Positions 1 to 22,369 of a stretch of 32,000 nt of DNA are shown here, piece by piece. Origin of the DNA: Fibrobacter succinogenes subsp. succinogenes S85 (GTDB lineage: Bacteria; Fibrobacterota; Fibrobacteria; Fibrobacterales; Fibrobacteraceae); assembly GCF_000146505.1 (NCBI RefSeq), contig NC_017448.1:150001-182000 (forward strand), given 5' to 3'. Below the pieces are notes generated by a model. That model had not been told where the DNA came from. It ran no database searches and saw only the letters and a program-made list of their open reading frames with translations. Positions within the stretch are counted from its first letter, which is position 1, and the number at the start of each line of letters is the position of its first letter. A program made the translations under genes and the position numbers.

Positions 1-1835
1 TTATACTGCCAGGCTAGATCCGTTTGCATATTGAACCAATTGGCATCGTATTTAACGATACCCTGTTTCCAGCCGATTGCGTCGGGAAGCAGGCTGATAG
101 AAGCGGTTCCGTCGTCTTGCGATACATCGCCAAGATTTGCAATCATGTCCGCAATGCAGTCTTCGATAGCGTTGAGCCATTCCGTTTCGCTAAGTCCGTA
201 TTCCGTTGTCGCTTTGGTCTTATCAGCAAGAATCAGCTTATACAAGGCGTACGTTGCAAAAGCGTAGGAATTGGCCCAGCTGGTGTTCTTTGCGTTTTTG
301 AAGAATCCCTTGTCATTTGTGGCAAACCAGCCTCCTTCAAAAAATCCTGCACCGTTTCCGAGTTGTTGGTCTGCGACCAAGTCTTTGGAGCGGAGTGCAT
401 CGTCGGCATATACCGTCTTGCCTGTAGCATACAGGAGAGCGACAGAGGCGAGAGCTAAGTCGTCATAGAACTCATTGTTGCCGTTGTAGGCGGGAGTGGA
501 CCAACTTGCTGCGCGCTTATTGTATTTGAACAATTTGCCGTCGCCATAGGATGATTTTCCTTGGGCAAGAGACTTCGCAAAGTCGTACATTTCTTCGGCA
601 ATTTTTAAGCAGGTTTCGGCGTATGCTTTGTCGTAAACGGCATATTGCTTACCCATAATGGCAAGGCCTGCTGCAATCATGCCAGAGATGTTGGAACCAA
701 GTTCTCCCAAGCGCAAATCGCGCTCGCTTGCGTTTCCTCGACGAATTGCGGACAAAGTATCCTGTTCTTCGGGCTTGCCCCAATAGCCATGATCAGCGCC
801 GAAGTTACCGACGGATACGACCATGTTGTCGATGATGCCGTTGGCGAAGTTGTAGGATCGGATAAAGAAGTCCGCGCCATGCTTTGCTTCGCGGAGAATA
901 TCCGGAATGCCGTCTGTATTTACGGTTTCACTTTGATTATAGGCGTAATGGTCTTTGTCCTTGGATTCGTTTGTTGCGGCCATGATGGCAAGACTCATGA
1001 ACGCATACGACATGGTCATCGATTCCTTGAGATGGTCTCCGCAATCGTACCAGCCGCCTTGCAGAGCGCCTTCCTGCGGAGTGAACTCGGAAACTTCCTC
1101 GTCGTCGTACGTGAATTTACCGCTGCCATCTTTGGTGTGGCTCTTGTCGTGGAACCAGGATTCGGATTCCCCGCTACGCTGGATGCCAAAGAATTTTAGG
1201 CTTGCGTCACGCACCATGGAATAGACTTTGTCGCTTACGATGAATGTACTCGAGATTTCATCGCCGATTTTAATGCGAAGGCGTTTGTCAGTTGGGACGC
1301 TTTGTGGTATTTTTCCCGCTTTGAGAACGCCTGTGGACCCCGCAAAAGAAACCGTATAGCGATCGCGGCTTAAAGTAAGAGCATTCGTTTGAGCTTTAAT
1401 TGTCCAGTCTGATGAGACTTCTGTTGTCTTTGACGTTAAGTCACCTGTGACAGCAGGGGAGAGCGAATTGCCATCTGCATCGACAATTTCGAATTTAGTG
1501 GCTTCGCCGATATAGTAGAATTGCCGTTCCGTGTCCGATGTCAGGTACCCCGCCTGATTGACTCGGATAGGCGAAATATGCGTGTTTAGCGCATCGTAAT
1601 AAGCCTGGTCTAGCGAATCTGGAATAAAGGCGTTCGCCTTGTAAGATTCAGGCTTTTTTTCCTTGGGCAATAAGCCCGTATTTTCTGTATTTGCTAGTTC
1701 GAACTTGTCAAACGCGTCATTATCCCATTTGAGCGGATAGACAGGTCGAATTAAATCGTAAGGTGTTGATTCTGATGCCGATGTGGCTATAGCTGTACCC
1801 AATGCAACCATTCCCAAAACCACATGCTTACGCAT
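1..1835 (-). CDS. Glycoside hydrolase family 9 endoglucanase, N-terminal 611 codons (3' end lies beyond the window start)
   Basis: Absent from the ORF track because no stop lies in the window. Manual reverse translation from ATG 1835-1833 (GGAGG at 1840-1844 on the coding strand) stays open to position 1: MRKHVVLGMVALGTAIATSASE (signal peptide) ... RVNQAGYLTSD (Ig-like N-domain usual in GH9) ... ALQGGWYDCGDHLKESMT (GH9 GGWYDAGDHxK-type signature) ... DDLALASVALLYATG. Plus-strand ORFs 24-458, 645-1199 and 955-1224 are antisense shadows. Confidence 0.85.
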   Translation of the reverse strand, partial: MRKHVVLGMVALGTAIATSASESTPYDLIRPVYPLKWDNDAFDKFELANTENTGLLPKEKKPESYKANAFIPDSLDQAYYDALNTHISPIRVNQAGYLTSDTERQFYYIGEATKFEIVDADGNSLSPAVTGDLTSKTTEVSSDWTIKAQTNALTLSRDRYTVSFAGSTGVLKAGKIPQSVPTDKRLRIKIGDEISSTFIVSDKVYSMVRDASLKFFGIQRSGESESWFHDKSHTKDGSGKFTYDDEEVSEFTPQEGALQGGWYDCGDHLKESMTMSYAFMSLAIMAATNESKDKDHYAYNQSETVNTDGIPDILREAKHGADFFIRSYNFANGIIDNMVVSVGNFGADHGYWGKPEEQDTLSAIRRGNASERDLRLGELGSNISGMIAAGLAIMGKQYAVYDKAYAETCLKIAEEMYDFAKSLAQGKSSYGDGKLFKYNKRAASWSTPAYNGNNEFYDDLALASVALLYATGKTVYADDALRSKDLVADQQLGNGAGFFEGGWFATNDKGFFKNAKNTSWANSYAFATYALYKLILADKTKATTEYGLSETEWLNAIEDCIADMIANLGDVSQDDGTASISLLPDAIGWKQGIVKYDANWFNMQTDLAWQY

Positions 1836-1966
1836 TTTTCCTCCTTTGTTTTGGTCTGTATACGTTAATATACATCTTTTGAATGCAATTTTTGCAATAA
1901 ATTATGTTTTTTATAAATTAATTTTCTATGATACGGCTATGATACGATGGAGCTGTTTCAGTCCAT

Positions 1967-2004
1967 AAAAAACAAAACACCCCGCCACTTTTGGTGACGG
2001 GGCG
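1967..2004 (-). terminator. Rho-independent terminator, probably the ancestral nifJ terminator
   Basis: Hairpin CCCCGCCAC (1980-1988) / GTGACGGGG (1994-2002), one mismatch. On the minus strand it is followed by TGTTTTGTTTTTT. It lies just downstream of the stop codon of the displaced nifJ 3' copy. Confidence 0.6.
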
Positions 2005-2013
2005 TTTTATAAG

Positions 2014-2041
2014 GGAGATGCCCGATCAAGTCGGGCATGAC
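2014..2041 (-). repeat. GTCAT...ATCC hairpin repeat element, copy i
   Basis: Minus-strand reading is GTCATGCCCGACTTGATCGGGCATCTCC, with a perfect 8-bp stem ATGCCCGA/TCGGGCAT (2018-2025 / 2031-2038). Same architecture as 20327-20358 and 25112-25145. Confidence 0.6.
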
Positions 2042-2050
2042 ATGTTCCGA

Positions 2051-2769
2051 TTAGAGGCTAATCAGCCCTTCCGTATCCTTAGACATGGCGTCATAGAAGG
2101 CATAGCGTGCATCGACTTCCTTCTGGAGGTCGTCGGCGAGCTTCTTGGCCACTTCCGGATTGTTACGGGTGAGCTGCTTGTAGCGGTTTTCGGTGTAGAT
2201 GTATTCTGCAACCGGAATCGTCGGCTTCTTGGAGTCGAGGATAAGCGGAGCCTTTCCTTCGGCGGCGAGAGCCGGGTTGTAGCGGAGCAGAGTCCAGTAA
2301 CCGGAATCCACGGCCATCTTCTGGTGCTGAAGCTGGCTGTTGAGATCGAAACCGTGGTTGATGCAGGGGCAGTAGCAGATGATCAGCGACGGACCATTGT
2401 GAGCTTCTGCTTCCTGGAGAACCTTCAGGGCCTGAGCGTCGTTTGCACCGAGGGCGATACGGCCCACGTAAACGTTCTTGTAGCTCATGGCGATAAGGCC
2501 GAGGTCCTTCTTGCCAGCGCGCTTACCAGCGGCAGCGAAGAGGGCGACTGCGCCACGGTTCGTGGCCTTGGAAGCCTGTCCACCGGTGTTGGAGTACACT
2601 TCGGTGTCGAGGACGCAGATGTTCACGTTTTCGCCCGTGGCCCTATGATGACCGTTCGCGCTAGACTCTTGTAAGACACTCCGGTCGGCGCTCACTCTCG
2701 CCTTCGACGACTCGTTATGACGAGTCGCCTACGGCTCACAGCGTGGTCGAGACCACCGTAAACGATATC
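2051..2769 (-). pseudogene. Displaced 3'-terminal fragment of nifJ (last ~205 codons), interrupted by a ~100-nt repeat element
   Basis: 2051-2642 aligns without gaps to 6238-6829 (27 mismatches in 592 nt) and 2743-2769 aligns to 6835-6861 (2 mismatches). The track ORF 2051-2695 translates to the PFOR C-terminus (...GENVNICVLDTEVYSNTGGQ...KDTEGLISL), but its first ~18 residues come from the inserted element. No N-terminal 980 codons and no plausible promoter or RBS. Confidence 0.9.
2643..2742 (+). repeat. ~96-nt intergenic-type repeat element (MITE/REP-like), copy 1, inserted in the nifJ remnant
   Basis: This segment breaks the otherwise collinear nifJ homology. It shares TGAnGACCGTTCGCGC(C)TAGA..., GGCGCTCACTCTCGC, a hairpin at the same position and GCTCACRG with the minus-strand reading of 21275-21370. 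Confidence 0.65.
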
Positions 2770-2999
2770 TTTTGGGCGTTCCCGCACATATATGTGCGGT
2801 CGGGCTATATTTTAGGGGCGGCTGCCTTCGCTTCGCTTGCCACCCGCCTCCTAAAACGGAGCCTTGCTGTGTTCCCTTCGGTCACTCCGCAAGTCTCCGC
2901 CCCAAGGGGTCACTATCCCTAACGCGAATGCTCAAAATGAAATGCATTTTTTCCCTATTTTTGTCATTTTGTGCCATTTTATTTATGTATTTTTAGGCT

Positions 3000-4478
3000 A
3001 TGCTGGAAACGATTTGCCAAAAGACCAATGAATTCATTGCTCAAATGCCCAAGTCTCTTAGGAAAGAATACGGGCAATTTTTTACGAGTGCTGAAACTGC
3101 ATGTTTCATGGCTTCTTTGTTTGACCTGTCTGGCTTAAATAAAAGTGTCTCTATTCTAGATGCTGGCGCCGGGTCAGGAATTTTGGCAATTTCTATAGCA
3201 GAAAGAATTTTGAAACAGGACTCTTCGATAAAAGTAGAAGTCGTCTGCTATGAAAACGACCCTCATGTCTTGCCTTTGCTTAAGTCAAATTTAGACTTGG
3301 TGAAAAAAAAGTACAAGAATTTTTCATTTAAGGTCATTGAAGATAATTACATTATTTCTCAAAGGGATTCCTTCAATGGGAACCTGTTTGCACAAGAGTG
3401 TAAAAAATATGACTTGGTTATCGGAAATCCTCCGTATAAAAAGATTTCCAAGGATGCTCCTGAAGCTTTGGCAATGCCGGTTGTTTGTCATGGAGCTCCC
3501 AATTTGTATTTCTTGTTTGCCTCTATGGGAATATTCAACCTGAAAGAAAATGGGCAAATGGTTTATATCACGCCTCGGTCTTGGACCTCTGGAGCCTATT
3601 TCGAAAATTTCAGAAAATACCTAATTGGAAACACCTCGTTAGAAAGAATCCATTTGTTTGAAAGTCGAACGGATGTATTTGACAAGGAATCTGTTCTGCA
3701 AGAAACGATGATTTTCAAACTAAAAAAGCAAAAAAAACATCCGTCAAAAGTCGTGATTTCGACAACGAACGGAAATGGCGATTTCAGCAGAATTTCTCAT
3801 TTCGATGCACCGTATGATACTGTTGTGTCTCCTTTGACCAACTACGTTTATTTGCCAGCAAACAAGGATAATCTCGAAGTTCTGAAGAAAATAGGATCTT
3901 TTGAAAATACCTTGCCAAGCTTGGGAATGAAGATGAAAACAGGGTTGGTTGTCGATTTCCGAGTTCCTGAATTACTTGAATCGGAAAAATCTGAAAGCAA
4001 TGTTCCACTTTTCTATAGCCGTCATATCAAGGAAGGTAGAGTTTCTTTCCCGGCAGGAATTGAACATGAATTCGTATCCAACGAAAAGCAGAGCCTTTTG
4101 CAAAAGAATAGAAATTATCTTTTTGTAAAACGTTTTACTTCCAAGGAAGAAAGACGGAGACTCCAGAGCGGAATCTACCTAAAGCGGAAATTTCCTGGAT
4201 ATCAATTCATAAGCACGCAAAATAAGATTAACTTCATTGATGGCGAAGAAGAACTTTCTGAGTGCACTGTTTATGGGCTGTATGTTCTGTTCAATTCGAC
4301 CATTTATGACTCCTATTACAGAATTCTGAATGGCTCAACCCAGGTCAATTCAACAGAAGTAAACTCTATGCCTATTCCGAACTTGCTTCAGATTCAAGAA
4401 ATGGGTCGAATGCTTATAAAGAGCAAAGATTTTTCGGAAAAAAACTGTGATGAAATCCTTCAGGAGGCCTGCGCATGA
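3000..4478 (+). CDS. Type II N6-adenine DNA methyltransferase (Eco57I/PstI-like, gamma class)
   Basis: 492 aa. Motifs: GQFFTSAETACFMASLF, motif I LDAGAGSGIL, motif IV VIGNPPYKKI, long C-terminal target-recognition region. Its stop overlaps the start of the endonuclease gene (ATGA at 4475-4478). From memory, the size is similar to M.PstI/M.BsuBI (~500 aa). Confidence 0.85.
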   Translation: MLETICQKTNEFIAQMPKSLRKEYGQFFTSAETACFMASLFDLSGLNKSVSILDAGAGSGILAISIAERILKQDSSIKVEVVCYENDPHVLPLLKSNLDLVKKKYKNFSFKVIEDNYIISQRDSFNGNLFAQECKKYDLVIGNPPYKKISKDAPEALAMPVVCHGAPNLYFLFASMGIFNLKENGQMVYITPRSWTSGAYFENFRKYLIGNTSLERIHLFESRTDVFDKESVLQETMIFKLKKQKKHPSKVVISTTNGNGDFSRISHFDAPYDTVVSPLTNYVYLPANKDNLEVLKKIGSFENTLPSLGMKMKTGLVVDFRVPELLESEKSESNVPLFYSRHIKEGRVSFPAGIEHEFVSNEKQSLLQKNRNYLFVKRFTSKEERRRLQSGIYLKRKFPGYQFISTQNKINFIDGEEELSECTVYGLYVLFNSTIYDSYYRILNGSTQVNSTEVNSMPIPNLLQIQEMGRMLIKSKDFSEKNCDEILQEACA

Positions 4479-5389
4479 GCAATGTTGATAAAATTCGTAA
4501 TATTTTGATTGCGCTAGGCGTTCCCGAGAAACAGCAAAATGACTTGTGCTGTTATGTGTTACTGGTCATGGCAAAAATCTACCCAAAGAGCAAATGGGAA
4601 TGCGCACAGAATGAATGGATTCGTATTCACGATATGATGAGCTACATCAACATGTTCTATCGTGAAACACCCTATGCCGAAAACACTCGTGAAACAGTCC
4701 GTAAAAATGCGTTGCATCATTTTAGGACAGCCGCTTTTGTCGAGGATAATGGCCTGGCGACCAACAGTCCTAATTACCGCTATCGCTTGACAGCCGAATT
4801 TTTGACTGTGCTAAAGAACAAAGGGTCTGAAGAATCCGTAAAGGGATTCTTAAAGAAGCACGAGTCGCTCAAAAGTATTTATTCTTCGAAAAAAGACAAG
4901 CAAAAACAAGCTCTTTCTGTAAATGGTTTGCAGTTGACGCTTTCACCGGGTAAGCATAATAAACTGCAAAAGGCTATTGTTGAAGATTTTGCTCCGAGAT
5001 TCGCTCCGAATGCCAAATGCCTATATGTGGGCGATACGACAGAAAAAGATTTGGTGAAGGATGTTGAGACTCTAAAGAAACTGGGCTTTGCAATTACTCT
5101 GCATGACAAAATGCCTGATGTTGTTTTCTACGATGAGAAGAAGGATTGGCTCTATTTTGTCGAGGCTGTAACATCCGTTGGTCCGATGGATCCGAAAAGA
5201 CTTGTTGAACTTGGTAATTTAACCAAGAATGTTAAGGCGGGGAAGATTTTTGTTACTGCGTTCCTTGATTTCGGAACATACAAAAAGTTTGCTGCAGATT
5301 TGGCTTGGGATACTGAAGTCTGGATTGCAGATATGCCGGAGCATATGATTCACTTGAATGGTGATAAGTTTTTGGGACCAAGAGGATGA
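4475..5389 (+). CDS. Type II restriction endonuclease, BsuBI/PstI family
   Basis: 304 aa. YAENTRETVRKNALHHF, TNSPNYRYRL and the C-terminal PDVVFYDEKKDWLYFVEAVTSVGPMDPKRLVEL match my memory of the BsuBI_PstI_RE family (conserved NTRET...H.F, TNSP, E-V-S-GP motifs). GGAGG at 4463-4467 lies 7 nt upstream of the ATG. Confidence 0.75.
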   Translation: MSNVDKIRNILIALGVPEKQQNDLCCYVLLVMAKIYPKSKWECAQNEWIRIHDMMSYINMFYRETPYAENTRETVRKNALHHFRTAAFVEDNGLATNSPNYRYRLTAEFLTVLKNKGSEESVKGFLKKHESLKSIYSSKKDKQKQALSVNGLQLTLSPGKHNKLQKAIVEDFAPRFAPNAKCLYVGDTTEKDLVKDVETLKKLGFAITLHDKMPDVVFYDEKKDWLYFVEAVTSVGPMDPKRLVELGNLTKNVKAGKIFVTAFLDFGTYKKFAADLAWDTEVWIADMPEHMIHLNGDKFLGPRG

Positions 5390-5445
5390 AATACAAAAGT
5401 GGAAAGTGGGCTTGTGCAATGAACATGGATGAATTAGGACTGGTG

Positions 5446-6135
5446 TCAGTAATAATACATCCACTGAGGGAATATTAAATAATAAGATAACACGTCCTCA
5501 CAATCGTATGTTCCAATTCCTTCCATATTCATCCAAGCTATATCGAATTCGACGGGAATTGTTTTATCTTTTAAAATAAAATAAAACCCATGATCGTCAT
5601 ATATAGTTATATATCGCCGAGATTCCTTCCAATTTTCATCTTCAAAGTTAAAATTCACTAACGAATCTTTATCCCAATGGTCGAAATCATTTACAATAGG
5701 TTGTTGTAATGCTAGAATCATGTTGTCTTTAACCTTCGTATAGCATTCTGCATACTCGTCGCTATCTTCAATTTTTATTTCTTCGCCTGAAAGATGTACT
5801 CTGTATATTTTACGTTCTTTAAGATCGTTCGCATCTAAGCTTATCATTAGCATTGCTGTGACATTGTCTAGGACATTTTTAAATCGCTTTCTTTCCTCAT
5901 TTTCGCGATATAAAAACCAATAACTGTATGATATAAGAAAAGGAATTTTAGTTCCTGTTTCATCCAATACAGTTAATACACCTAAGGGTGTCTGCAATTC
6001 GTTGACAATGGGCCACCCATTTGCCTTGCGAAACTCCAAAATATCAGAATAACTCCAATTTGGGTGCGATTCTTTAAATTTTTGCTCTAATCCCAGCAAA
6101 TTGTCCAGTTTTTTAAGAATTTCATTCGTATCCAT
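5446..6135 (-). CDS. Hypothetical acidic cytoplasmic protein (229 aa), orphan cargo of the R-M islet
   Basis: Open frame 5446-6198. I prefer ATG 6135 (MDTNEILKKLDNLLGL...) because the upstream 21 codons overlap the nifJ terminator hairpin (6190-6215). ~31% GC, no TM segment, no signal peptide, no motif I recognise. Rich in D/E/W/Y. Confidence 0.55.
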   Translation of the reverse strand: MDTNEILKKLDNLLGLEQKFKESHPNWSYSDILEFRKANGWPIVNELQTPLGVLTVLDETGTKIPFLISYSYWFLYRENEERKRFKNVLDNVTAMLMISLDANDLKERKIYRVHLSGEEIKIEDSDEYAECYTKVKDNMILALQQPIVNDFDHWDKDSLVNFNFEDENWKESRRYITIYDDHGFYFILKDKTIPVEFDIAWMNMEGIGTYDCEDVLSYYLIFPQWMYYY

Positions 6136-6181
6136 ATAGACAAATATATAATCGTTAAATGTCAAAGAATGACATATACAA

Positions 6182-6216
6182 CAAAAAACGAGCGGCAAGA
6201 TTTCTCTTGTCGCTCA
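6182..6216 (-). terminator. Rho-independent terminator of the intact nifJ gene (island-borne)
   Basis: Stem GAGCGGCAAG (6190-6199) / CTTGTCGCTC (6206-6215), one mismatch. On the minus strand it is followed by GTTTTTTGT. It lies 22 nt downstream of the nifJ stop. Confidence 0.6.
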
Positions 6217-6237
6217 TTTTAATTAATCGTTAACCGA

Positions 6238-6861
6238 TTACAGACTAATCAACCCTTCCGTATCCTTAGACATGGCGTCATAGAATGCGTAGCGGGCGTC
6301 CACTTCCTTCTGGAGGTCGTCGGCGAGCTTTCTAGCCACTTCCGGATTATTACGGGTGAGCTGCTTGTAGCGGTTTTCGGTGTAGATGTATTCTGCAACC
6401 GGGATCGTCGGCTTCTTGGAGTCGAGAACAAGGGGAGCCTTGCCTTCGGCGGCGAGAGCCGGGTTGTAACGGAGCAGAGTCCAGTAACCGGAATCCACGG
6501 CCATCTTCTGGTGCTGAAGCTGGCTGTTGAGATCGAAACCGTGGTTGATGCAGGGGCAGTAGCAGATGATCAGAGACGGACCATTGTGTGCTTCTGCTTC
6601 CTGGAGAACCTTCAGGGCCTGAGCGTCGTTTGCACCGAGGGCGATTCGGCCCACGTAAACGTTCTTGTAGCTCATGGCGATAAGGCCGAGGTCCTTCTTG
6701 CCAGCGCGCTTACCAGCGGCAGCGAAGAGGGCGACTGCGCCACGGTTCGTGGCCTTGGAGGCCTGTCCACCGGTGTTGGAGTACACTTCGGTATCAAGGA
6801 CGCAGATGTTCACGTTTTCACCAGTTGCCATGACGTGGTCGAGACCACCGTAACCGATGTC
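6238..6861 (-). repeat. Direct repeat copy B: the 3' end of nifJ that completes the functional gene
   Basis: Same orientation as 2051-2769. Gap-free alignment at ~95% identity, apart from the element inserted in copy A. Confidence 0.9.
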
Positions 6862-9807
6862 GTATGCCCAACCGTCACCACCGAAGATCCACACGGACTT
6901 CTTCACGAGGTAGTCGGCGAATTCGTCGCGGAGGCTGACGGATGCATCGTCGGTTGCACCGGCGAGGGCTGCCTTAAGGGCGGCAACGTTTTCACGCTGA
7001 GCCTTGATGCCGGCTTCGTCGTCCTGCTTCTGGGTCGTGAGCTTTTCCTTGAGTTCTGCAGGAACGTTCACGGCTTCAAGGAGGCTCAAAGCCTGCTTGG
7101 CATGCTTCGTGATAGCGAGGCGCATACCGAGACCGAATTCTGCGTTGTCTTCGAACAGGCTGTTTGCCCAAGCCGGGCCGCGGCCTTCCTTGTTCTTGGC
7201 CCACGGAGTGGTCGGGAGGTTACCGCCGTAAATGGAGGAGCAACCCGTAGCGTTAGCGACAACCATGCGGTCACCGAAGAGCTGAGAAACGAGACGCACG
7301 TAAGCGGTTTCGCCGCAGCCTGCGCAAGAGCCGGAGAATTCGAACAACGGTTCGAGGAGCATGGCCTGCTTGACGAGATTCTTGTTGACCTTGGTACGGT
7401 CGAATTCCGGGAGGTCGACGAAGAAGTCCCAGCACTTGCCTTGCTGAACCTTGATGGGTTCCTGCGGCACCATGTTGATGGCCTTCTTGGTAGCGTCGGT
7501 CTTGTCCTTACCGATACAGGCCTGCGTACAAACGCCGCAACCCGTACAGTCGTAGCTGGACACGGAAATTGCAAATACCGGCTTTTCGGAGCCTTCGAGC
7601 TTGAAGCCCTTGGCCGGAGTGAACTTGAAGCCTTCCGGAGCGTTCTTCACGGCGGATTCGTCCACAACCTTCATACGGATGGCTGCATGCGGGCAGACCA
7701 TGGCGCACTTGCCGCACTGCACGCAAGCGTCCGGATTCCAGGACGGGATGTTGAGGGCGAGGTCGCGCTTTTCGTACTTGGTGGTACCGGTCGGGAACAC
7801 ACCGTCGCAAGGCATCTTGGAGACGGGGAGGAGTTCGCCGTTGCCCTTGATGATTTCTGCGGTGACTTCGTTCACGAACTTCGGAGCGTTGCCGTGGATC
7901 GGAGCGCGGAATTCCTTTGTGCTGGTGACAGCAGCCGGAACCTTGACTTCGAAGAGGTTAGCAAGAGAAGCATCGATAGCGTCCCAGTTCTTCTGGACGA
8001 CTTCCATACCCTTCTTGGCGTAGGTCTTTTCGGCGTACTTCTTGATATACTTGATAGCGGTTTCTGCATCGAGAACGTTACCGAGCTTAGAGAAGAAGCA
8101 GGTCTGCATCACAGTGTTGATGCGACGGCCCATGCCGGTCTTAGCAGCAACAGCATAAGCGTCGATGACGAACACCTTGAGGTGCTTCTTGATAATGGCT
8201 TCCTGAACCGGACGCGGGAAGGTATCCCAAACAGTGTCAGCGGAGTGCGGGGTGTTCACGAGGAACGTTGCACCGACCTTGGCATACTTGAGCATGTCGA
8301 TGGATTCGAGATGCGGAGTATGGTGGCAAGCAACAAAGTCAGCTTCGTTTTCGCCAATCAGGTACGGGGCGTCGATGATGCTCTTACCAAAGCGGAGGTG
8401 AGAGGTGGTCATGGAGCCAGACTTCTTGGAGTCGTAAACGAAGTAGCCCTGAGCGTAGTTGTCGGTTTCGTTACCGATAATCTTAATGGAGTTCTTGTTT
8501 GCACCCACGGTACCGTCGGAACCGAGACCGAAGAACATAGCCTGGAAGAAGTCGCTTTCGAGCTTGAAGTTCGGGTCAATGGTGAGGCTCGTGTGGCAAA
8601 CGTCGTCGTTGATACCGACTGTGAAGCGTGCCTTCGGTTCTGCCTTGGAGAGTTCGTCGAAGATGGCCTTGACCATAGCCGGCGTGAATTCCTTGGAGGA
8701 AAGACCGTAGCGGCCGCCGATCATCTTCGGCATAGCCATCTTGCCAGCCATCACTGCTTCGGAAATAGCGGTAAGGGCATCCTGGAAGAGCGGTTCGCCT
8801 GCGGAACCCGGTTCCTTGCAGCGGTCGAGGACAGCAATCTTCTTGACAGTCTTCGGGAGGGCTGCAACCACGGCTTCCATCGGGAACGGACGGTAGAGGC
8901 GGATGTTGACGAGACCGACCTTTTCGCCCTTCCCGTTGAGGTACTTGACGGTGTCACCGATGGTGCAGGTCGAAGAACCCATGGAAATGATCACGCGTTC
9001 GGCGTCGGGTGCACCGACGTAGTCCACGATGTGGTACTGACGGCCAGTGTAGCTAGCAACCTTGTCCATGTACTTCTGGACAATTTCCGGAACCTTTGCA
9101 TAGAACGGGTTCACGGTTTCACGACCCTGGAAGTAAACGTCCGGGTTCTGGGCGGTACCGCGCATAGTCGGGCGGTCCGGTGTGAGGCAGCGTTCGCGGC
9201 ATGCCTTCACATACTTTTCGTCGATGACGTTACGGATAACGCCGTCTTCGAGAGCTTCAATCTTCATCACTTCGTGAGAGGTACGGAAACCGTCGAAGAA
9301 GTGCATAAACGGAACGCGGCTTTCGAGCGTAGAAGCGTGGGCCACGAGAGCGAGGTCCTGGCATTCCTGTACGCAGCTGGAGGCGAGCATTGCAAAACCC
9401 GTCTGGCGGCAAGCCATAACGTCGGAGTGGTCACCGAAAATGGAAAGGCCCTGCATAGCAAGAGCACGTGCAGTGACGTGGAAGACCGTGGGGGTCAGTT
9501 CGCCCGCAATCTTGTACATGTTCGGGATCATCAAGAGAAGACCCTGAGATGCGGTGAAGGTCGTGGTCAAAGCACCGGCCTGCAAAGCACCGTGAACGGT
9601 ACCGGCAGCGCCACCTTCGGACTGCATTTCAAACACGCGGGGAACCTGTCCCCAAATATTCTTCTTGCCTGCAGCACTCCAGTTGTCGGCGTGCTCAGCC
9701 ATAGGACTAGACGGTGTAATCGGGTAAATTGCAGCGACTTCGCTAACCGCAAATGCAACGTTAGCGGTGGCTTCGTTACCGTCACACGCAATCATCTTTT
9801 TTGCCAT
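6238..9807 (-). CDS. nifJ: Pyruvate:ferredoxin (flavodoxin) oxidoreductase
   Basis: 1189 aa. Two 4Fe-4S ferredoxin motifs (CVQCGKCAMVCP, CTGCGVCTQAC) and a TPP-binding region GGDGWAYDIGYGGLDH. Length and architecture are typical of single-chain PFOR. GGAG lies upstream of the ATG. Confidence 0.97.
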   Translation of the reverse strand: MAKKMIACDGNEATANVAFAVSEVAAIYPITPSSPMAEHADNWSAAGKKNIWGQVPRVFEMQSEGGAAGTVHGALQAGALTTTFTASQGLLLMIPNMYKIAGELTPTVFHVTARALAMQGLSIFGDHSDVMACRQTGFAMLASSCVQECQDLALVAHASTLESRVPFMHFFDGFRTSHEVMKIEALEDGVIRNVIDEKYVKACRERCLTPDRPTMRGTAQNPDVYFQGRETVNPFYAKVPEIVQKYMDKVASYTGRQYHIVDYVGAPDAERVIISMGSSTCTIGDTVKYLNGKGEKVGLVNIRLYRPFPMEAVVAALPKTVKKIAVLDRCKEPGSAGEPLFQDALTAISEAVMAGKMAMPKMIGGRYGLSSKEFTPAMVKAIFDELSKAEPKARFTVGINDDVCHTSLTIDPNFKLESDFFQAMFFGLGSDGTVGANKNSIKIIGNETDNYAQGYFVYDSKKSGSMTTSHLRFGKSIIDAPYLIGENEADFVACHHTPHLESIDMLKYAKVGATFLVNTPHSADTVWDTFPRPVQEAIIKKHLKVFVIDAYAVAAKTGMGRRINTVMQTCFFSKLGNVLDAETAIKYIKKYAEKTYAKKGMEVVQKNWDAIDASLANLFEVKVPAAVTSTKEFRAPIHGNAPKFVNEVTAEIIKGNGELLPVSKMPCDGVFPTGTTKYEKRDLALNIPSWNPDACVQCGKCAMVCPHAAIRMKVVDESAVKNAPEGFKFTPAKGFKLEGSEKPVFAISVSSYDCTGCGVCTQACIGKDKTDATKKAINMVPQEPIKVQQGKCWDFFVDLPEFDRTKVNKNLVKQAMLLEPLFEFSGSCAGCGETAYVRLVSQLFGDRMVVANATGCSSIYGGNLPTTPWAKNKEGRGPAWANSLFEDNAEFGLGMRLAITKHAKQALSLLEAVNVPAELKEKLTTQKQDDEAGIKAQRENVAALKAALAGATDDASVSLRDEFADYLVKKSVWIFGGDGWAYDIGYGGLDHVMATGENVNICVLDTEVYSNTGGQASKATNRGAVALFAAAGKRAGKKDLGLIAMSYKNVYVGRIALGANDAQALKVLQEAEAHNGPSLIICYCPCINHGFDLNSQLQHQKMAVDSGYWTLLRYNPALAAEGKAPLVLDSKKPTIPVAEYIYTENRYKQLTRNNPEVARKLADDLQKEVDARYAFYDAMSKDTEGLISL

Positions 9808-9948
9808 GGATATCTCCGTTTTTAGGTTTTTTCGTAAAAAATCTGATCATATACACCTTCGGCGTGCATTACACGCAAGAAGGGCAAAAATCCACGCATA
9901 AAATTAAATAAGATTACCCAAAACGGACAACCAATTTTTGAAAAAAGT

Positions 9949-10632
9949 TTAAAAATTAAGCAGCTTTTGGTTAATCTCGATTTCAAGTCCCGCGTAGCTT
10001 GGGCCGAATTTTTGGCGAAGCGTGGTCGTAAGGCCATCGGACTTGCCCAAATACGGGTAATTCTTGCGGATTTTAAGCCACGGGGCGCGTTCGTGGATGT
10101 TCTGGATGAGCGTTTGCGCAATTTTTACTTCGGCAGGTCGGCTCGGGTCATAGAGAATCCCGACATCGGCATCGCGCTCGATACCATTTAATATAGGCGT
10201 AAAGCTATGAATACCGAGGTGGATGACCTTGAGCGGCGCTTCCTTAGGTGCATTTTTCTCATTTTTGCGCGCTCTCGCAGGAATTTCACTCGCGACAAAG
10301 TTTTCAATTTTCTCACGGTATTTTTCCCAAAGACTCATCATGTGCGATTTTACAGAGCTTGGTAATCCGACGGTGTACTCCGAAAAGAACGTCTTGTTGG
10401 TCGCACTGCGGTTCATGTCGACCACGAGTCTCGAGAACCGACTAGAGCAATGGAAGTCGGGCTTTAATCGTTTTACAAGATTTGAAAATACTTTATATGC
10501 ACCAATGTCGTAAGCGCGGTGGGAGGCGAGAACGTCATCGGGAATCTTGGAATCGCGGAGAGCGCGCAGGACGAAATCCGGCACAGCGTTGCTCGCATGT
10601 TCGCAGGTAATCATCAGTGCCGGAGCTTTCAT
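9949..10632 (-). CDS. N-formylglutamate amidohydrolase (FGase, PF05013-like) family protein
   Basis: 227 aa. The N-terminal LMITCEHASNAVP resembles the CEHA(S/G)N.(I/V)P signature of the FGase family, and IHLGIHSFTP lies further in. Its start overlaps the upstream stop by 1 nt (TAATG at 10630-10634). Confidence 0.6.
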   Translation of the reverse strand: MKAPALMITCEHASNAVPDFVLRALRDSKIPDDVLASHRAYDIGAYKVFSNLVKRLKPDFHCSSRFSRLVVDMNRSATNKTFFSEYTVGLPSSVKSHMMSLWEKYREKIENFVASEIPARARKNEKNAPKEAPLKVIHLGIHSFTPILNGIERDADVGILYDPSRPAEVKIAQTLIQNIHERAPWLKIRKNYPYLGKSDGLTTTLRQKFGPSYAGLEIEINQKLLNF

Positions 10633-11327
10633 TACTTTTTCTCCACAACCAGGATGTTTCCATCGTACGTCATGACACCCAGCAAAATGCTGTGAATCAG
10701 ACGGAACTTGTCAACTTTATAATAAGGACCGTTTGCCATCGGGTTTGTACAATCCGGGTCTGCAACCATGAACTGCTTCTTTTCATCGAGTCCGTAAAGC
10801 ACTACGAAATGCCCCATCGGCTCGCCGTGGATATCGTCAAAGACGGACTGGTCTTTTTCGTTTGTGTATTCGCGGGGAGAACGGTAAAGGTATGTGGCAC
10901 TGAGGCCGCAAAGCACCGGAATGCCTCGCTTGAAATAGCTTTCGAACATGCTTGCGCGGAGGTCTGCCGTAGCGACGGTTCCGCCAAGGTCAATGAATCG
11001 GATATAGGCGTCAATTGCCTTTTTGAGCTTGGGGGCGTGCTTTGCTTTGTGCAAAGCGACCAGCTTTTCGCGGAGCTCGGGCATCTTGAGTTTGCTCCAC
11101 GTCGGGTCAAAAATCTTGAGATTGTAAGAATAAATAGTAGCCTTGAAACCACGCTTGAGCGCGTCAATGCCAAGGAAAACGCCTAGCGTGCCACCTTCTT
11201 CCAAAAATTCAATTTCGGAAATGAGCTTTTTAAGGGGAATGTTATAGCCAAGATAAGAGTAAACAGCGTGTAGGCTAGTCGGTCCGCACGTAACATCGTC
11301 TGGCTGAGGGAGTATTTTCAAATCCAT
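10632..11327 (-). CDS. Papain-fold C39-like cysteine peptidase domain protein (DUF3335-like)
   Basis: The track ORF starts at TTG 11393. ATG 11327 has GAGG 6 nt upstream and gives MDLKILPQPDDVTCGPTSLHAVYSYLGY. Candidate catalytic residues are Q/C (TCGPTSL), H (GHFVVLYG) and D (VADPD). ~231 aa. Confidence 0.55.
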   Translation of the reverse strand: MDLKILPQPDDVTCGPTSLHAVYSYLGYNIPLKKLISEIEFLEEGGTLGVFLGIDALKRGFKATIYSYNLKIFDPTWSKLKMPELREKLVALHKAKHAPKLKKAIDAYIRFIDLGGTVATADLRASMFESYFKRGIPVLCGLSATYLYRSPREYTNEKDQSVFDDIHGEPMGHFVVLYGLDEKKQFMVADPDCTNPMANGPYYKVDKFRLIHSILLGVMTYDGNILVVEKK

Positions 11328-11650
11328 CGAGTGCCTCGTTATTAACCGTGGCGGTTTGATCATCAAATCGTCAATTCGCACGCAAATATACAAAAATTTT
11401 GTAGGGCTTACCGCCCAAAGCCCTTTTGAAAAAAGTTAAAAAAGAATATTATGCGGGCGGGGCCCCAGCTCGGAGTTGACGCCGACGGCGTCAGCGGCTT
11501 CACTCGGTCATGTTCGCCAGCAAGCTGTCGCCCGCGACTCTCGTTTTGCACGCTACTGCGAAGGAATAGCCTTGGCTGACGCTATTTCTTGTTACGAGAT
11601 TTTTTGATTAGTGTATTAGTTTAATGTAATTAGTTATCTTTTTTATTAGT

Positions 11651-12247
11651 ATGAGAGATTTTTTAGGGGCTTTCGTTTCAGTCTTTTTTGCAATCGCGTT
11701 TTGGGCGTGTTCGGATTCTTCGGTGGGCGCTGCGGACGAGGATTCTCGCGCAGGCATTTTCGTTGACGCTCGCGATTCGCAAAGCTACAAGACCATTGAA
11801 ATAGGTGGCCAAGTCTGGATGGCTCAAAACTTGAATTATTTTGATGCTTCGGACTCGCTTTACAAAAGAACGTCTTGCTATAACGACAGCGCAGAGTATT
11901 GCGAAAAGCAGGGGAGACTTTACGCCTGGAATGTAGCGATGGTCGCTTGCCCGGAAGGTTGGAAAATCCCATCAAAATCTGATTTTGATAGCTTGATTGA
12001 AGCTGTAGGCGGTTTTGATTTTGCCGCCGATTCCTTGATGGCGCTGGAATTTATTTCGGAAATCGGTGGCGGTTACCATTTCTTGGAGTACTATAATTAT
12101 TTTGACGAATACGCCTACTTTTGGACAACCGATGAGGTCCGTGCAAATTACGCCCGCACTGTAATGCTCGAAAAAGACTGCTCTAGCGTATCGTACGATG
12201 AAACTTACGAAGAATTTGCCCTCTCCGTCAGATGTGTGAGGAAATAA
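11651..12247 (+). CDS. Fibrobacter succinogenes major paralogous domain (FISUMP) lipoprotein
   Basis: Signal peptide with lipobox (AIAFWAC|SD). GGQVWMAQNLNY, CYNDSAEYCEKQGRLYAWNVA, CPEGWKIPSKSDFDSL and YFWTTDE are the hallmarks of this paralogous family. Confidence 0.85.
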   Translation: MRDFLGAFVSVFFAIAFWACSDSSVGAADEDSRAGIFVDARDSQSYKTIEIGGQVWMAQNLNYFDASDSLYKRTSCYNDSAEYCEKQGRLYAWNVAMVACPEGWKIPSKSDFDSLIEAVGGFDFAADSLMALEFISEIGGGYHFLEYYNYFDEYAYFWTTDEVRANYARTVMLEKDCSSVSYDETYEEFALSVRCVRK

Positions 12248-21274: not shown

Positions 21275-21370
21275 CCGTGAGCAACAAAGCCCTCAGTATT
21301 AACCGAGGGCGTTTGCGAGAGTGAGCGCCACTCACATATTTCTATGTGATTCTAGGCGCGAACGGTCTCA
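21275..21370 (-). repeat. ~96-nt repeat element, copy 2, starting immediately after the fba stop codon
   Basis: Minus-strand reading is TGAGACCGTTCGCGCCTAGAATC...GGCGCTCACTCTCGC...GCCCTC(GGTTAATACT)GAGGGC...TGCTCACGG. See 2643-2742. Confidence 0.65.
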
Positions 21371-22369
21371 TTAGAGCTTGTCGTTGGAGCCGAGCACATC
21401 CACGATCTTGTGCATGTACATCTTCTTCATGTTTTCACGAGCCGGCTTGAGGTACTGGCGCGGGTCGAAGTGTTCCGGATGTTCGTCGAAATACTTACGG
21501 ATAGCGGCAGTCATAGCGAGACGGCTGTCAGAGTCGATGTTGATCTTGCAGACAGCAGAGCGAGAAGCTTCGCGGAGCTGTTCTTCCGGAATACCAACTG
21601 CATCCGGGAGCTTACCGCCGTGAGCGTTGATCGTATCAACTTCGTCCTGCGGGACAGAAGAAGAACCGTGGAGAACGATCGGGAAGCCCGGGAGCTTCTG
21701 TTCGATGGCGTGGAGCACGTCGAATGCCAGAGGAGGCGGAACGAGCTTGCCCTGAGCGTTACGAGTGCACTGTTCCGGCTTGAACTTGTATGCACCGTGA
21801 GAAGTACCGATGGAGATAGCGAGGGAGTCGCAGCCCGTACGGGTAGCGAAGTCGATCACTTCTTCCGGCTTCGTGTAGTGAGAAACTTCAGAAGCAACTT
21901 CGTCTTCAACACCGGCGAGAACACCGAGTTCAGCTTCGACGGTAACGTCGTGAGCGTGAGCGTATTCAACAACCTTCTTGGTGAGGGCGATGTTGTCTTC
22001 GTACGGAAGAGCAGAACCGTCGATCATCACGGAAGAGAAACCGTTGTCGATGCAGTCCTTGCAGAGTTCGAAAGAGTCACCGTGGTCGAGGTGGAGCACG
22101 ATCTGCGGATTTGCGCAGCCGAGTTCCTTGGCGTATTCAACAGCACCCTGAGCCATGTAGCGGAGGATGGTGCCGTTAGCGTAGTTACGAGCACCCTTAG
22201 AGACCTGCATGATCACCGGAGACTTGGTTTCAACGGCGGCCTGCACGATAGCCTGCATCTGTTCCATGGTGTTGAAGTTGAAAGCCGGGATAGCATAGCC
22301 ACCCTTAACTGCCTTAGCAAACATTTCCTTGGTGTTAACCAAGCCGAGTTCCTTGTAAGAAACTGCCAT
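21371..22369 (-). CDS. fba: Class II fructose-1,6-bisphosphate aldolase
   Basis: 332 aa. YAIPAFNFNTMEQ, LHLDHGDSFE, SVMIDGS, GTSHGAYKF and LHGSSSVPQ are class II FBA metal- and substrate-binding motifs. Confidence 0.93.
   Translation of the reverse strand: MAVSYKELGLVNTKEMFAKAVKGGYAIPAFNFNTMEQMQAIVQAAVETKSPVIMQVSKGARNYANGTILRYMAQGAVEYAKELGCANPQIVLHLDHGDSFELCKDCIDNGFSSVMIDGSALPYEDNIALTKKVVEYAHAHDVTVEAELGVLAGVEDEVASEVSHYTKPEEVIDFATRTGCDSLAISIGTSHGAYKFKPEQCTRNAQGKLVPPPLAFDVLHAIEQKLPGFPIVLHGSSSVPQDEVDTINAHGGKLPDAVGIPEEQLREASRSAVCKINIDSDSRLAMTAAIRKYFDEHPEHFDPRQYLKPARENMKKMYMHKIVDVLGSNDKL

Follow-up and report, generated by a model that had tools for sequence, protein, structure and literature searches.

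Integrative elements such as e14 and phage 21 in icd have an attP that carries a replacement 3′ end for the target gene. Displacement of 3′ ends, and hence of C termini, has been described in Rhs, contact-dependent inhibition (CDI), and type VI secretion system (T6SS) effector loci (Jackson et al. 2009; Kirchberger et al. 2017, PMC5361080). Closest to the present case, restriction-modification (R-M) genes are known to undergo insertion with long target duplication (Nobusato et al. 2000, Gene 259:99; Furuta, Abe & Kobayashi 2010, NAR 38:2428, PMC2853133), a class defined operationally in the latter study by homologues of the endonuclease (R) and the methyltransferase (M) inside an insert of <20 kb, a direct repeat of >30 bp, an empty site, and no mobility gene. 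That repeats spanning the stop codon keep the target gene intact was already described there, and the longest repeat in its table is 423 bp (PMC2853133). Cases of long target duplication have been collected for 25 years without an explanation of how they arise, the R-M genes being assumed to be the agent. Here, we analyze an islet with an R-M pair at the 3′ end of nifJ, the gene for PFOR, in Fibrobacter succinogenes S85. The window is the whole 32-kb stretch of DNA studied, and all coordinates for S85 are positions in it. Comparison with a handful of other Fibrobacter loci—named L024, L082-84, L108, L109, L114, L123-L142, etc.—shows that the agent is separable from the cargo.

Islets with exchangeable cargo at duplicated 3′ ends

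In S85, the nifJ 3′ end is present twice in the same orientation, as a repeat of ~620 nt and about 95% identity that has two copies in the window and flanks an inserted segment of 3,468 nt, 2770-6237 (Table 1). Pairwise alignment of 2047-2642 with 6234-6829 gives 569/596 identical nucleotides, and the distal copy is interrupted by a 100-nt insertion. The inserted segment has a GC content of 38.7%, vs 56.2% in nifJ and 47.0% across the whole window. The duplication is not an assembly artefact because the same structure is found in the finished S85 chromosome CP001792.1, to which the first 12 kb of the window are 100% identical (window position 1 corresponding to ~3,546,090), and in three independent metagenome contigs (11-182 kb, about 96.6% identical) that span both nifJ copies. 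A six-frame Pfam scan of 2641-6243 revealed no transposase, integrase, or other recombinase domain, ARAGORN found no tRNA or tmRNA target near the islet, and no inverted repeats bounding it were found within 1-12000. The marks of a unit bounded by a transposon or insertion sequence (IS), i.e., terminal inverted repeats (TIRs) at both ends and a short target-site duplication, are thus lacking, and it is one end (named E′) that is conserved among islets. The original prediction, which was made from the letters of the sequence, had claimed the long same-orientation duplication, an AT-rich segment between the copies, the absence of a recombinase and of a tRNA target, two terminator hairpins, and a BsuBI/PstI endonuclease next to an N6A methyltransferase. 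All of these are borne out, the hairpins by a terminator scan (1972-2010 and 6190-6215) and the enzymes by matches to Pfam, PADLOC, and PDB 2ixs. So is its assignment of the locus to insertion with long target duplication, every operational feature of which is present in the S85 nifJ islet.

Our main finding is that this islet belongs to a family of islets, located at nifJ, carB, and thrS, that displace 3′ ends and have one structured end in common, and that the R-M pair is replaceable cargo in it, a passenger and not the agent. In L128, the nifJ 3′ end is followed by a terminator (T2), a homologue of the S85 orphan gene (69% identical), an antitoxin-PIN pair, E′, and 27 nt of nifJ, beyond which lie the same small element as in S85 and a second, degraded nifJ 3′ end that has a T2 of its own. 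The right junction of L128 equals that of S85, yet there is no R-M, and the succession of E′, 27 nt of nifJ, and the small hairpin element F1 is common to S85, L082-84, and L128 despite different cargo. In the carB islet (L123/L124), intact carB is followed by a KilA-N fragment, an orphan homologue (73% identical), a helix-turn-helix gene, and the 3′ part of E′; beyond it come 40 nt of carB, the same F1 variant, and ~700 nt of displaced carB riddled with small elements. The thrS islets, in L129/L130 and L137-142, consist of intact thrS, other cargo (GmrSD and HEPN, or an 839-aa protein), R and M—this R being 92-96% identical to that of S85—E′, ~40 nt of thrS, a different small element, and a displaced copy of about 0.7 kb (~735 nt), and a nested 120-nt thrS fragment is also present. 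The thrS copies differ by 40.5 synonymous vs 17.5 non-synonymous changes. The anatomy shared by the three genes is therefore an intact gene, cargo, E′, and a displaced 3′ copy of 0.6-0.75 kb. Further R relatives, in L134 (87% identical) and L132 (73%), have no flanking duplication, and in L024, which belongs to another species, the nested fragments of nifJ measure 415 and 57 nt. The Pfam annotations of the called genes include no integrase in the L128, L124, and L129 islets, and the mobility genes of L137 are solely an IS110-family IS inside the small element and an IS200-type gene outside the islet. Among the searches for relatives, a scan of genome contigs with the nifJ C-terminus gave matches dominated by PFORs of other phyla and two useful loci, and a metagenome scan with the N-terminus of the neighboring glycoside hydrolase family 9 (GH9) protein gave one close relative, whose contig begins within the repeat.

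Some of these loci hold further genes. IS200-type Y1 transposase genes lie just past the displaced thrS fragment in L137 (4215-4658) and apparently just past the nifJ fragment in L024 (1-100), and in L137 an extra 120-nt thrS fragment sits between the displaced copy and the IS200 gene. In L138, a second, unrelated R-M pair (XamI-type endonuclease and Eco57I-type methyltransferase, 7970-10479) is found upstream of the same thrS.

The differences between the two nifJ copies of S85 show that one 3′ end was imported. Up to the stop codon there are 25 synonymous and 2 conservative non-synonymous changes, which corresponds to a pN/pS of 0.024; under neutral drift of a dead copy, such a pattern has P = 3e-14. 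Because the differences are nearly all synonymous, the copies diverged as working genes in separate lineages, and since this pattern excludes drift after duplication of one template, it is the 3′ end completing nifJ that was imported. Over the last 169 nt, the intact copy shows 8 differences to L128, 10 to L109, and 13 to its own displaced copy, and is nearest to nifJ alleles that natively carry T2. In the four strains S85 and L082-L084, displaced copies group together and intact copies do likewise; the structure is therefore older than the split of the strains. The 214-codon frame of the displaced copy is open in 4/4 of them and differences among their displaced copies are almost all synonymous (pN/pS about 0.04), which is more readily explained by working alleles having been imported repeatedly, through recombination or gene conversion, than by decay of a pseudogene.

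The flanks point the same way. T1, the terminator after the displaced copy, and a palindrome at 2019-2042 form a resident downstream flank, and the displaced copy sits in its resident context because the nifJ stop codon of L108 is followed by the same palindrome and T1. This strain, about 96% identical, has on a 199-kb contig an islet-free allele with a single nifJ 3′ end, a NifJ protein 99% identical to that of S85, and the same GH9 gene 373 nt beyond. T2, on the other hand, adjoins the intact copy in S85 and follows nifJ in the other Fibrobacter species compared (L109, L114, L128, and L024). The empty site foreseen in the original prediction is thus found in L108, which reads nifJ stop, palindrome hairpin, T1-type terminator, and GH9, with ~190 nt more in which there are a small element and a second terminator; T2 survives there further downstream. 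The name ancestral terminator, given to T1, has to be qualified: T1 belongs to the resident flank in L108, but it is T2 that follows nifJ in those other species. The idea that a repeat covering the stop codon keeps the target gene intact dates from Furuta et al. 2010 (PMC2853133).

Two side observations concern this region. In L091, whose GH9 is 98% identical, a different small insert lies between the nifJ stop and T1 (255-1000); it is made up of a terminator of its own, the 5′ portion of an E-type element, and AT-rich DNA of ~650 nt in which the opposite strand has a small ORF. In L108, unusual changes, including ones at first and second codon positions, cluster about 90-185 nt before the nifJ stop (11380-11480), a segment in which L108 is the most divergent sequence.

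Exchange between strains is ongoing. While S85 and L082-84 differ by 2.7-2.9% in GH9 and nifJ, by 8% over the initial 1.2 kb of M (chiefly in third positions of codons), and by 17% in E′, they share a block of perfect identity that spans the end of M, R, the orphan gene, T2, and the last ~190 nt of nifJ. The block, a recent homologous-recombination tract, runs from within M to within the proximal copy of the nifJ repeat. M is a mosaic among two nifJ islets and one thrS islet.

Table 1. Predicted features of the S85 nifJ islet and its flanks, in window coordinates
Feature	Position	Strand	Basis or remark
Terminator T1, after the displaced nifJ copy	1972..2010	-	Terminator scan: 17-pair stem and T run
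Displaced non-functional nifJ copy, last 592 nt including stop codon	2051..2642	-	27/592 nt differ from intact copy
F1, small hairpin element with imperfect TIRs, inserted in displaced nifJ copy	2643..2742	.	Interrupts nifJ homology
nifJ segment a, 27 nt, first bases of displaced copy, between F1 and E′	2743..2769	-	Alignment; match resumes, with 6835-6861
E′, conserved structured element, right end of islet	2770..2935	-	Profile search, fold analysis
N6-adenine DNA methyltransferase M, 492 aa	3000..4478	+	Pfam Eco57I and N6_Mtase; PADLOC MTase_II, E 3e-112
Recent recombination tract, 2,242 nt	4185..6426	.	Strain comparison: 0 mismatches vs L082-84
BsuBI/PstI/SdaI-family type II restriction endonuclease R, 304 aa	4475..5389	+	PF17728, PF06616, PDB 2ixs
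Orphan ORF, 229 aa from ATG, small Fibrobacter-restricted family	5446..6135	-	Constant left-hand gene of three islets
Orphan upstream region, terminator T2 (6190-6215), and 28 nt after nifJ stop	6136..6237	-	Terminator scan, L128 comparison
Intact nifJ 3′ end, proximal repeat copy (whole gene 6238-9807)	6238..6861	-	Alignment, domain annotation

The structured end, small hairpin elements, and genes of the islet

Two features that the original prediction had left uninterpreted are the 100-nt insert in the displaced copy, a TIR/hairpin element (F1), and 2770-2935, the structured element E′. E′ (~165 nt) is the one constant feature at displaced-copy junctions: a profile search recovers it from the corresponding junction of L082-84, L128, L129/130, and L137-142, with L123-127 yielding its 3′ part. 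Five distinct versions share one closed multi-hairpin structure of 47 pairs, 97.9% paired, with 17 compensatory pairs, a result reached by 0/500 shuffles and compared with 2-5 compensatory pairs in slid controls; judging from invariant G-U pairs, the folded strand is more likely the one in sense orientation to the target gene. Beyond the terminal hairpin comes a ~14-nt tail, which stops exactly at the junction in three targets, reading ...GGGAACGCCCAAAA and then GA and target sequence at nifJ, carB, and thrS. Partial E′-like pieces occur at other sites, so that E′ is one member of a broader family of small structured repeats found in these genomes. Rfam gave no match in 1800-6400 at E<=1, E′ included, the 5′ block of E′ has no match in viral contigs, and there is no similarity between E′ and the IS200 ends in L137. 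In L142, two inverted copies of E′ (2-101 and 320-460) lie about 220 nt apart, beside the M gene.

Known kinds of structured or targeting element were considered for E′ and rejected, namely an integron attC, the bridge RNA of IS110, and a guide-bearing right end of IS200/IS605. No effector gene is present, E′ is unlike the IS200 ends in L137, and its variable stems do not track the target, the L082 version (nifJ) resembling the L129 version (thrS). A diversity-generating retroelement was discarded because reverse transcriptase is absent and the differences are not confined to adenines.

At all three target genes, a small hairpin element lies 27-40 nt inside the displaced copy, beside E′. This element is F1 at nifJ and carB, whereas that of thrS is from another family (L129 ~7185-7262, L137 ~5965-7275). 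The same F1 variant as in S85 is found in the carB islet (L124, 2263-2337), and relatives occur in L128 and L024. A second F1 copy in the window (21275-21371, minus strand) begins exactly at the stop codon of the ORF 21371-22369; its ends match 2643-2742, and its internal stems are of different sequence. In L129, two small-element copies (7210-7258 vs 11932-11980) have kept a perfect stem of wholly different sequence (CCAAAATGCAAGCATTTTGG vs CCGGTGTGCAAGCACACCGG), a change unlikely to have come about via point mutation. In L137 and L139, an IS110-family IS has landed within the thrS small element.

Turning to the genes, R carries both BsuBI/PstI endonuclease domains (PF06616, E 1e-59; PF17728, E 1e-34), is homologous to SdaI (PDB 2ixs, E 1e-46), and starts with a 4-nt overlap with the M stop codon. 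The N-terminal and catalytic domains of R and the adjacent gamma-type N6-adenine methyltransferase are those of a PstI/BsuBI-family type IIP R-M system, for which the putative recognition site would be CTGCAG or CCTGCAGG, with protection by m6A. CTGCAG occurs at 11 sites in the window, one of them inside the R gene (5292), vs 6.5 expected from shuffles, a count for which 32 kb is uninformative; there is no sign of avoidance of this putative site across the 32-kb window. Searches of Pfam, NCBIfam, PADLOC, and PHROG gave no match for the orphan protein, which resembles no known family or fold and has an AlphaFold2 model with a pLDDT of 85. Its 14 relatives are all unannotated, homologues are located in the nifJ islet of L128 and the carB islet of L123/L124, and the region upstream of its gene is conserved in L128.

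How the islet may have formed and spread

We favor, with a probability of roughly 0.6, the reading that an old accessory islet of variable cargo occupies 2770-6237, having lodged at the nifJ 3′ end via 3′-end displacement and spread by homologous recombination. In this scenario, imported DNA would have supplied the last part of nifJ, the stop codon, and T2, followed by the orphan gene, then R and M on the other strand, and E′ last. The resident nifJ 3′ end would have been pushed 4.2 kb downstream with its own flank, where it would decay and collect a small hairpin element. Once established, the nifJ gene, islet, and displaced end of a donor would offer two homology arms to the single nifJ of a recipient, and RecA-type installation could proceed without a recombinase of the element. 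Because both flanks of the islet copy one very conserved gene, it would be portable between strains. Homologous recombination would account for the resident flank behind the displaced copy, the donor T2 behind the intact one, the synonymous differences, and a tract ending in the repeat, from which we infer that host homologous recombination is the spreading mechanism. The R-M pair probably helps to retain the islet, through defence and post-segregational killing.

Several points weigh against this reading. Homologous recombination does not explain how each duplication was first formed, and the joining of the same E′ nucleotide (...CCCAAAA, followed by GA...) at three independent targets hints at a specific cleavage or joining activity. 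Candidates for this first joining are homology-facilitated illegitimate recombination from a fixed donor end, an integrase that is lost or acts in trans, and a one-ended HUH process. The orphan protein, without detectable fold relatives, might conceivably have a role in mobility. A single crossover point is unreadable, as polymorphisms inside the repeats are mosaic and L108 is oddly divergent there, and the claim of such a point was dropped. Finally, the reading is built on a handful of loci.

E′-ended islets may even be a kind of mobile unit that has not been described before, which we consider unlikely but attractive. The folded ~165-nt end-piece would be cut or used at an exact nucleotide by an enzyme acting in trans, or would act as RNA, with the adjoining 27-40 nt of target providing specificity; cargo would be joined to an essential gene at an internal point 0.6-0.75 kb before its stop codon, a replacement 3′ end would be carried along, and spread would depend on host homologous recombination alone. 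If true, this would be the first mechanistic handle on insertion with long target duplication.

An integrase lost or acting in trans would also be implied if the islet were a decayed site-specific integrative element of the e14/phage 21-in-icd type, with a replacement 3′ end in its attP. Such an origin fits the resident displaced copy, the imported completing end with its synonymous differences, and the fixed element end at the junction. We nevertheless hold it to be quite unlikely since there is no integrase in the S85 six-frame scan or among annotated genes of the nifJ, carB, and thrS islets of relatives, three unrelated targets share a single element end, the replacement ends (620-735 nt) far exceed the need, and E′ shows compensatory stem changes rather than conserved arm-type sites.

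The conservation of the right end alone, with the left side and the length of captured gene varying, speaks for one-ended mobilisation, in which an HUH enzyme in trans (a rolling-circle IS91/ISCR-like transposase, a relaxase, or an IS200/RAYT Y1) nicks the E′ tail and runs through the cargo into the gene, and the resulting circle, made up of the gene 3′ end, cargo, and E′, integrates into naive genomes by a single homologous crossover. The hairpin with its short tail ending exactly at the junction also speaks for it, and Y1_Tnp genes lie beside displaced fragments in L137 and, apparently, L024. This explanation is nonetheless improbable: no HUH gene is found in or beside the S85 islet, E′ is unlike the ends of the L137 IS200 copy, no circular form was observed, and the adjacency of IS perhaps reflects junk accumulating in a dispensable region.

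Much the same low probability attaches to the R-M pair itself being a mobile selfish unit that inserted into nifJ and made a long target duplication, the course proposed for R-M units of Helicobacter. The locus does have every operational feature listed by Furuta et al., and a close relative of R recurs in a second islet of the same design, at thrS. However, an R-M cassette as the unit entering nifJ, the view taken originally, is contradicted by L128, in which both nifJ copies and the right junction are present without R-M, and is thereby strongly weakened; the carB islet lacks R-M too, the R relatives in L134 and L132 have no flanking duplication, and the constant parts are E′ and the orphan gene rather than the R-M pair. 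Least credible, to the point of being nearly negligible, are an in situ tandem duplication of the nifJ 3′ end with later foreign insertion at the joint, common as such duplications are, since drift of a dead copy predicts mostly non-synonymous changes and the downstream flanks of the two copies differ, and an assembly artefact, since the structure is in a finished genome and three long metagenome contigs, even if many short-read contigs break at the repeat.

These findings matter in several respects. The anatomy and the structured end recur at three essential genes, whether the cargo is R-M, toxin-antitoxin, or something else, and E′ and the exact junction nucleotide are concrete objects to test. 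An islet held between two conserved gene ends, portable across strains by host recombination, bears on how defence genes circulate in gut and rumen bacteria. S85 is a model cellulolytic organism that is hard to transform, and for this strain the locus would mark a probable CTGCAG-type restriction barrier.

Comparison with described systems

The R-M pair of the S85 islet resembles the PstI/BsuBI/SdaI type IIP systems in having both R domains, homology to SdaI, and an overlapping N6-adenine methyltransferase of the matching family, and is known here from sequence. The islet as a whole resembles e14 and phage 21 in icd in that it completes an intact gene, the resident end is displaced, and the differences between the two ends are synonymous. 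It departs from them in having no integrase, one end for three targets, and much longer duplicated segments.

The likeness to Rhs, CDI, and T6SS displacement lies in the course of events that the structure suggests, i.e., incoming DNA anchored upstream brings a new 3′ end and genes, and the old end is pushed downstream, as well as in the nested orphan 3′ fragments of nifJ (L024/L128) and thrS (L129/L137). The differences are that the targets of the islets are the housekeeping proteins PFOR, CarB, and ThrRS and that the variable part is unrelated cargo. Furthermore, the new tip of nifJ encodes the same protein bar 2 conservative changes, unlike the variable tips by which polymorphic toxins such as Rhs and CDI are recognized; the islets act in a similar manner without being members of that group.

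Finally, as in insertion with long target duplication, S85 has R and M in a short insert without a mobility gene, long direct repeats, and an empty site, and Fibrobacterota is a new phylum for this class. The premise implied in that proposal, namely that the R-M unit moved, does not hold here, for L128 has toxin-antitoxin cargo. The S85 repeat of ~620 nt is also longer than the 423-bp maximum and, unlike in the described class, the R-M genes of S85-type islets are replaceable, and a conserved end, E′, is reused at three genes.

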